In this document: positions 14,583 to 14,990 of the stretch, piece after piece
Layout of the letters: each line of letters begins with the position of its first letter
How positions within the stretch are numbered: position 1 is the first letter of the stretch
NCBI GenBank assembly: GCA_036383895.1
Contig: DASVNK010000030.1
Coordinates: 116,490-180,489, forward strand
Direction of reading: 5' to 3'
Length of the DNA stretch: 64,000 bases
Source of the DNA: Verrucomicrobiia bacterium
GTDB taxonomy: Bacteria > Verrucomicrobiota > Verrucomicrobiia > Limisphaerales > SXQI01
Program-made: the position numbers and the translations under genes
Notes under the pieces: model-generated
Told to the model about the DNA's origin: nothing
Databases searched by the model: none
The model's input: only the letters and a program-made list of their open reading frames with translations

Positions 14583-14692
14583 AAAAAACACACGCCTTTT
14601 GAAACAAAACACACGCCAAACACACGCGAACACACCGAAGAAACACGCGGGAAATCGCAGCAAAACACACGGAAACACACCAAACACACGCG
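14583..14692 (+). repeat. phased AAACACAC(G) array A (8 units)
   Basis: CACAC cores start at 14589, 14610, 14621, 14631, 14644, 14666, 14676 and 14685 (spacings 21, 11, 10, 13, 22, 10, 9 nt). Each core is preceded by a run of 2-7 A. The array is followed by T8 at 14693-14700. Confidence 0.8.
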
Positions 14693-14894
14693 TTTTTTTT
14701 CTGGAGGCTGCTGTTATCGCAAAGGTCAACTAAGAGCCGCTTGAGAATGGCGTGTGACGGGTTCGCGGGGATTTTGCTGGAATGCGAGGAGCGACGAATG
14801 AGTATACCCTTCAGCGGTCTGCGACTGAGAAGCAACGACGCAGTCCGGCAAAAGAGCTTGAATACGGCGCTTGGGATTTGTGAGACGCCTTCTT

Positions 14895-14990
14895 AAAAAA
14901 ACACAGTCGCACACAACGCGAACACAGATCAAACACGGCTTCGAACACAGTAAAAGGCCAGCAAAACACATATAAACACAGAAAAACACA
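14895..14990 (+). repeat. phased AACACA(G) array B (8 units)
   Basis: CACA cores start at 14902, 14912, 14923, 14934, 14946, 14967, 14977 and 14987 (spacings 10, 11, 11, 12, 21, 10, 10 nt). The array ends 100 nt upstream of the ATG at 15090. Confidence 0.8.

Follow-up and report, generated by a model that had tools for sequence, protein, structure and literature searches.

Helically phased RAACACR arrays in a non-coding gap of a Limisphaerales polysaccharide locus as a candidate cis-regulatory element

Introduction

An 820-nt gap between a gene for a 2610-aa DUF4082/Big_5 protein and a set of sugar-modification genes carries two blocks of short, regularly spaced repeats, and the question raised by this locus is what these blocks do, if anything. 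No other non-coding stretch in the window, by which we mean the whole of the DNA analysed, 64 kb of one genome, is as long as this gap. The window covers an exosortase/EPS polysaccharide locus of an uncultured soil Verrucomicrobium of Limisphaerales type, and the named homologues of its proteins are from Verrucomicrobia or Limisphaerales MAGs.

To our knowledge, gene regulation in free-living Verrucomicrobia is almost unexplored. No cis-regulatory motif of the RAACACR-array kind was found for Verrucomicrobia in the literature searched. The kind of element is known; the motif and its presumed binder are, as far as could be found, not described. A 7-bp site that stays intact amid changing surroundings and precedes polysaccharide and secreted-protein genes offers a concrete way to a regulator, and the arrays would show the origin and resizing of such elements over very short evolutionary distances. 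If they are merely curved DNA or decaying minisatellites, the finding is an ordinary one. The reading we favour, with a probability of roughly 45%, is a DNA-level one, in which the arrays are helically phased regulatory DNA, curved and probably also a cooperative binding platform.

Gene context of the gap

Upstream of the gap, the gene order is methyltransferase, GT2 glycosyltransferase, flippase and the 2610-aa DUF4082/Big_5 protein (7.8 kb). The gap is followed by a hexapeptide acetyltransferase, an epimerase/dehydratase, a DegT aminotransferase and a DAO oxidoreductase, and then by a porin, a VPDSG-CTERM protein, the exosortase EpsH, a TPR protein and a 7TM-GAF histidine kinase. The first-pass annotation saw no convincing ORF between the stop codon at 14268 and the start codon at 15090, and this holds, as the ORFs inside the gap are all short (at most 92 aa) and of low complexity. 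The features of the gap, and the gene behind it, are the following.

14341–14369 (+): TTGACA-17-CATCAT, the only sigma-70-like consensus match of the gap, about 210 nt upstream of block A
14468–14508 (+): TTCACGCTAT-type repeat, period 10, about four copies, upstream of block A
14583–14692 (+): block A, eight RAACACR units
14693–14700 (+): T8 run, directly 3' of block A
14701–14894 (+): spacer domain between the blocks, G-richer than the blocks
14895–14990 (+): block B, eight units, one of them degenerate; the conserved part of the element
14991–15089 (+): stretch from block B to the ATG, pyrimidine-rich and G-poor
15090–15803 (+): hexapeptide-repeat acetyltransferase, first of the sugar-modification set, with the NAD-dependent epimerase/dehydratase and the DegT-type aminotransferase next

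No candidate regulator gene adjoins the gap, which counts against the DNA-level reading. Among the window ORFs scanned there is no response-regulator gene, and the sole histidine kinase found lies 13 kb from the gap. The two same-orientation clusters of ~11-bp repeats recall the parC-type plasmid centromeres, which have two clusters of ~11-bp iterons. Unlike these, the arrays have no partition genes beside them, their neighbours being the DUF4082/Big_5 giant protein and sugar-modification enzymes of a polysaccharide locus. The array region also gave no blastn match to plasmids or phages, and a mobile-element or plasmid origin was rejected on that ground.

Over the whole window, the + strand has more C than G throughout (cumulative GC skew of -3.95 over 64 kb), and the genes are mostly on the + strand. 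A sigma-54-type -24/-12 element (TGGCA-N7-TGCT, GG and GC 12 nt apart) is found at 22004–22019 (+), about 30 nt upstream of the VPDSG-CTERM gene (22047–22643), at the locus that also has EpsH, the TPR protein and the 7TM-GAF histidine kinase.

Layout and unit of the two blocks

The coordinates reported earlier are all correct. The CAC cores of block A start at 14589, 14610, 14621, 14631, 14644, 14666, 14676 and 14685, with AACAC at 14587, 14608, 14619, 14629, 14642, 14664, 14674 and 14683, and the block ends in CACGCG followed by the T8 run at 14693–14700. The CAC cores of block B start at 14902, 14912, 14923, 14934, 14946, 14967, 14977 and 14987, with AACAC at 14900, 14921, 14932, 14944, 14965, 14975 and 14985. 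Both blocks thus have eight units, unit B2 being degenerate (GCACACA). Block A is composed of 47% A, 33% C, 15% G and 5% T.

The hexamer AACACR has no window-wide enrichment (64 observed vs 56.7 expected). Its clustering in the gap exceeds chance by far: 15 of the 64 occurrences fall within 14587–14990 (~400 nt), all on the + strand. The pattern AAACAC-N3-7-AAACAC-N3-7-AAACAC has three matches in the window (at 14663, 14964 and 54459) vs 0.00 in 100 shuffles. When 29 units from the window and its relatives are anchored on AACAC, the consensus is RAACACR, with a purine at position -1 in 27 of 29, A or G at position +5 in all 29, and heterogeneous flanking positions. A CRISPR reading was rejected, the units being 10–11 nt long and without spacers of the usual length.

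Spacing follows a lattice of one helical turn, as first proposed. Unit-to-unit distances cluster at 10–11, 21, 32, 43, 54 and 65 nt, and the Fourier power peaks at a period of 10.75 nt in both blocks (5.8 of a maximum of 8, and 6.2 of a maximum of 7). Successive spacings in block A are 21, 11, 10, 13, 22, 10 and 9 nt. The steps of 21–22 nt are missing lattice positions; a site is skipped there and phase is not lost. A period of 10–11 nt is also given by any tandem repeat with an 11-mer unit, which counts against the DNA-level reading. Shifted by ~302 nt, one block falls into register with the other, and the two-turn step ahead of the final three units coincides; the flanks of the two are unrelated.

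Predicted curvature

Curvature was predicted with a dinucleotide wedge model over 110-bp segments, the output of which serves for ranking only, and in this ranking block B is first in the window, block A second, the array at ~54455 third and the array at ~31121 fifth. The predicted bend of block B is about equal to that of a perfect A6N5 x10 control. The A-runs ahead of the cores are in helical phase and range from A2 to A7, with only some reaching 4 nt. Many have 2–3 nt, below the classical length for A-tract bending, and this counts against the DNA-level reading.

Conservation among relatives

Among 53 metagenomic relatives of the acetyltransferase (66–80% aa identity), the gap in front of the gene has at most 193 nt, and usually there are fewer than 100 nt or an overlap. 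A relative at 84% aa identity has a gap of 52 nt. Runs of three AACAC, ACACA or CACAC units within 14 nt are absent from ~430 kb of DNA of these distant relatives; five such runs of AACAC occur in the 64-kb window.

The close relatives, taken as members of the same 90%-identity protein cluster as the acetyltransferase, form two lineages (L212/L213/L209 and L215). In L215 the gap measures 461 nt; block B has six units there, and block A is missing. The L212 lineage has a four-unit block B and the spacer domain from ~14750 on (~88% conserved), with a 60-nt insertion. The comparison for block A covers L215, as the six independent low-coverage contigs of the L212 lineage (L209–L214) all end in or just upstream of the array region.

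Block B thus has eight units in the window, six in L215 and four in L212. The ~43 nt of block B that the L212 lineage is without correspond to four lattice periods, by our own count from the alignment. Spacings of 10–12 and 20–21 nt are retained in the close relatives despite small indels, and the two-turn skip is retained in both L212 and L215. The best-conserved segment of the gap across the three lineages is GAACACA..CAAAACACAnATAAACACrGAnAAACACrG, and the gap outside block B is barely alignable with L215.

Conservation in block B is concentrated in the cores. Between the window and L215, 32 of 35 core positions are identical and 38 of 66 non-core positions (Fisher p = 5e-4), and between the window and L212, 23 of 24 and 27 of 39 (Fisher p = 0.012), in a comparison of three lineages only and with aligners that tend to pair repeated cores. 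Judged from these alignments, there is core-specific constraint on the non-coding twin arrays, at least on block B, and in a narrow clade only.

Absence from the orthologous gap in close relatives had been named beforehand as an argument against a function. Block B is kept in the closest relatives and absent in all more distant ones. Since arrays are absent at 80% aa identity or less, and already at 89–90% for the DUF3472 gene described below, any function must be young and dispensable, which counts against the DNA-level reading. The arrays are gained and lost quickly, with cores kept where an array persists.

Remaining parts of the gap

The spacer domain is not convincingly coding, and a consensus fold with L212 (two sequences) gave no covariation. 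A small protein at 14741–14896 was considered and rejected: the frame is open in L212, but conservation does not extend to the start, a frame-shift affects the middle, and by our own count all four substitutions in the shared C-terminal part are non-synonymous. The T8 run at 14693–14700 is partly complementary to the A7 at the start of block B (inverted repeat I5), and no counterpart of it follows block B in the relatives.

An A/T-rich patch lies 3' of the last block B unit in three of three lineages. Consensus scans of the three lineages found no sigma-70-like promoter adjoining block B or at a conserved offset from it, a point against the DNA-level reading, and no sigma-54 promoter adjoining block B was seen by eye. 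The acetyltransferase ATG is not preceded by a Shine-Dalgarno sequence in any of the three lineages; the SNF2 helicase gene of the window has a clear GGAGG.

Near the upstream end of the gap, ACGAGTTCC is repeated three times with period 9 at 14295–14320 (+). The segment ~14272–14325 is recognisable in L215, at another distance from the stop codon.

Related arrays elsewhere in the window

Two other genes of the 64 kb also have the motif upstream of them, which favours the DNA-level reading. The recurrences named in the first-pass annotation are real but of unequal quality: 54455–54486 has three clean units, 31121–31151 has two units, and the repeat at 31201–31300 is of a different, young kind.

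54455–54486 (+): three-unit array with 10-nt spacing and clean units, matched by the three-unit pattern
31121–31151 (-): two AACACA units and an A-rich tail, directly upstream of the DUF3472 gene
31201–31300 (-): 11-nt tandem repeat CACACACCCGG / CACACACAGCT, with a CACACAC core and no A-runs; young

The 54455 array lies between divergent genes, SNF2 helicase (GTG at 54440, -) and Calx-beta (ATG at 54689). In a relative at 83% aa identity two units are kept, 11 nt apart, together with the following ATAACGTTA, and in a relative at 69% the array is absent. The CA-rich repeats in front of the DUF3472 gene are absent in relatives at 89–90% aa identity.

The CA-rich strand had been described as always the sense strand of the next downstream gene. 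This is so for the next gene at three loci, but the 54455 array also adjoins the divergent SNF2 gene, 15 nt from its start codon, and reads TGTGTTT in the SNF2 sense. A promoter-like TTGACG-16-AATACT on the minus strand (54514–54541) weakens the rule further. A transcript started there would have the array in the SNF2 5' leader, as UGUGUUU just upstream of the GGAGG Shine-Dalgarno sequence.

The start of the DUF3472 gene itself (30273–31118, -) is peculiar. There is no in-frame ATG, GTG or TTG near the signal peptide, an ATG at 31114 is out of frame, and the frame, read on through the CA-rich repeats, meets no stop as far as a TTG at 31547. In relatives the start is an ATG a few codons ahead of the hydrophobic core. 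This could reflect an assembly error, a frameshift or initiation at ATT.

RNA-level properties

No Rfam family reached the gathering threshold in the whole window, nor was there any hit with E up to 10 in 14200–15200. The gap folds no better as RNA than shuffled sequence (z = -0.4 and +0.5). With fold scores near zero and no Rfam match there is no RNA-level signal, which favours the DNA-level reading. The T8 run has no hairpin before it and so is not an intrinsic terminator.

As RNA, both blocks fall within the least-structured 1% of 100-nt segments of the + strand by MFE, a prediction that follows from their composition (C/G of 2.0–2.1, T of 5–7%). The first-pass annotation had proposed a Rho loading (rut) site. 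The composition agrees with this: RNA of at least 70–80 nt that is C-rich, G-poor and unstructured is present. Rho primary sites prefer YC dinucleotides, and these are about 4-fold depleted in the blocks (4.2–4.5 per 100 nt vs 16.7 window-wide), which argues against efficient contact with the Rho primary site.

Alternative explanations

Three other accounts were weighed against the DNA-level reading. In one, which we regard as rather unlikely, the arrays are transcribed within a long unstructured A/C-rich leader or inter-operon RNA, and RAACACR acts single-stranded. It could do so as a rut-like landing platform where Rho stops read-through from the 7.8-kb upstream gene before it reaches the sugar genes, as an unfolded stretch that enhances translation from a start codon without Shine-Dalgarno sequence, or as multiple sites for an RNA-binding protein. 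The arrays could indeed be inside the 5' UTR, and the consistent orientation, with three loci at which CA is on the strand in which the next gene is read, would be in keeping with a role as RNA and speaks against a DNA-level one. The lack of structure, the C/G ratio of ~2 and the low T content fit as well, as do the missing Shine-Dalgarno sequence of the acetyltransferase in all three lineages, next to the GGAGG of SNF2, and the fact that both the 31121 array and the L215 array finish ~30 nt before a start codon. However, the near-helical DNA period with exact two-turn skips has no obvious rationale in RNA, the YC depletion weighs against the Rho mode, and neither an Rfam match nor covariation was found. 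At 54455, moreover, an array in the Calx-beta mRNA would need a promoter inside the SNF2 coding region, and the promoter-like site on the minus strand would instead put it in the SNF2 leader as UGUGUUU. Known binders recognise GGA (CsrA) or AANAANAA/ARN (Hfq, Crc), and RAACACR is unlike these. A free-standing sRNA made from block A is a far weaker candidate and hardly probable at all. It would run from the TTGACA-17-CATCAT site to T8, and its eight single-stranded CA motifs would make it a protein sponge; the promoter-like match at 14341–14369, the T8 run 3' of block A and the repeated unstructured motifs made it worth considering. But the promoter-like site is a single consensus match, T8 has no stem before it and no equivalent after block B in relatives, the fold scores and Rfam gave nothing, and L215, a close relative, is without block A. 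This proposal of the first-pass annotation has little support.

The arrays may also be functionless, that is, minisatellites that arose from a CA-rich, slippage-prone seed, were resized by unequal recombination and are now decaying. We hold this to be unlikely, although several observations agree with it. Tandem Repeats Finder reports block A as a decayed 10/11-nt repeat (65–67% matches) and 31201–31289 as a young one (80–94% matches), and other short-period repeats occur in the same gap. The units are head to tail, their number differs among close lineages (8, 6, 4), and slightly more distant relatives are without arrays. When 185,579 species genomes were scanned for three AAACAC units in phase, the matches listed were taxonomically scattered, and the multi-unit arrays among them were perfect 6–12-nt minisatellites, some probably coding, that occur sporadically in unrelated phyla. 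Neutral decay, however, is expected to erode cores and spacers equally. Here AACAC is intact in 15 units while every spacer is different, and the cores are preferentially conserved between lineages, so that uniform decay of the units was not found. The same 7-nt motif occurs at unlinked loci, and within a gap that has otherwise diverged, block B is conserved best.

Of the three hypotheses put forward in the first-pass annotation, curved DNA or a binding lattice therefore fits best. It is the one that goes with the 10.75-bp period and the conserved two-turn skips, with the top predicted curvature, and with a 5-nt core kept while spacers diverge, both within the genome and among relatives. In the DNA-level reading, the blocks would be cis-regulatory direct repeats of the 7-bp RAACACR (TGTGTTY on the other strand), with a short A-run ahead of each site. 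Sites one or two helical turns apart would all be on the same side of the duplex, a geometry that would make the DNA ahead of the sugar-modification genes intrinsically curved. The arrays would most likely also be a cooperative head-to-tail platform for a lineage-specific DNA-binding protein, with transcription of the downstream genes as the target. Block B would be the conserved functional core and block A a younger paralogous copy, and arrays would grow and shrink by whole lattice periods. A wider proposal is that RAACACR lattices serve, as operator or RNA target, a so far undescribed regulator found in a narrow Limisphaerales clade only. It would control EPS decoration and secreted proteins, and the building and resizing of arrays by whole helical turns would make this control of expression tunable and quick to evolve, in a contingency-like manner. 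This we consider quite improbable as it stands.

Comparison with known systems

ArcA operators consist of 2–5 direct repeats, mostly 11 or 22 bp apart centre to centre, and multiple repeats are seen also for OmpR and PhoB (PMC3798270). The arrays resemble operators of the OmpR/PhoB family (ArcA, Pho and PhoP boxes) in having 5–7-bp direct repeats at ~11 bp, with extra repeats one or two turns off, on one helix face and upstream of genes. Centre-to-centre distances of 10–11 bp are found here (spacings of 9–13 nt, period 10.75), and extra repeats at integral helical turns (~22 bp) are represented by the steps of 21–22 nt in both blocks. The arrays are longer (8 + 8 units) than the ArcA operators, and the motif is not a described box and is limited to a very narrow clade. 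By this likeness, an OmpR/PhoB-like winged-helix regulator would be the best analogy for the binder. On the other strand, TGTGTT presumably resembles the TGTTA, TGTTTA and TGTCA half-sites of OmpR/PhoB-family boxes, which we take as a lead only.

With curved phased A-tract DNA the arrays share A-runs in helical phase, the top predicted curvature of the window and a position upstream of genes. They differ in that many A-runs have only 2–3 nt and that conservation extends to the CAC(A/G) core, which would not be needed for curvature by itself. Like rut sites, they have ~100 nt of C-rich, G-poor, unstructured sequence with evenly spaced C, in an untranslated region after a long gene; unlike rut sites, they are YC-poor, and the 54455 array is found where no upstream same-strand transcript is expected. 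Finally, several copies of a short motif in unstructured RNA are also typical of sponge sRNAs (CrcZ, RsmY/Z, CsrB), but here the motif is another one, and a terminator hairpin, a conserved transcript unit and an Rfam match are all lacking.

Other observations in the window

Two further loci are worth recording. At 41382–43613 (+), a 743-aa protein combines an HTTM domain with a vitamin-K-dependent gamma-carboxylase lumenal domain, and a carbamoyltransferase gene adjoins it in divergent orientation. Lastly, 31616–34782 holds a cluster of DUF488, DUF5063 and DUF488 genes together with a PIN-domain gene (33576–34001), preceded by a small ORF, and a dual-OB (DuOB) protein. This cluster may be a toxin-antitoxin or defence-type islet.
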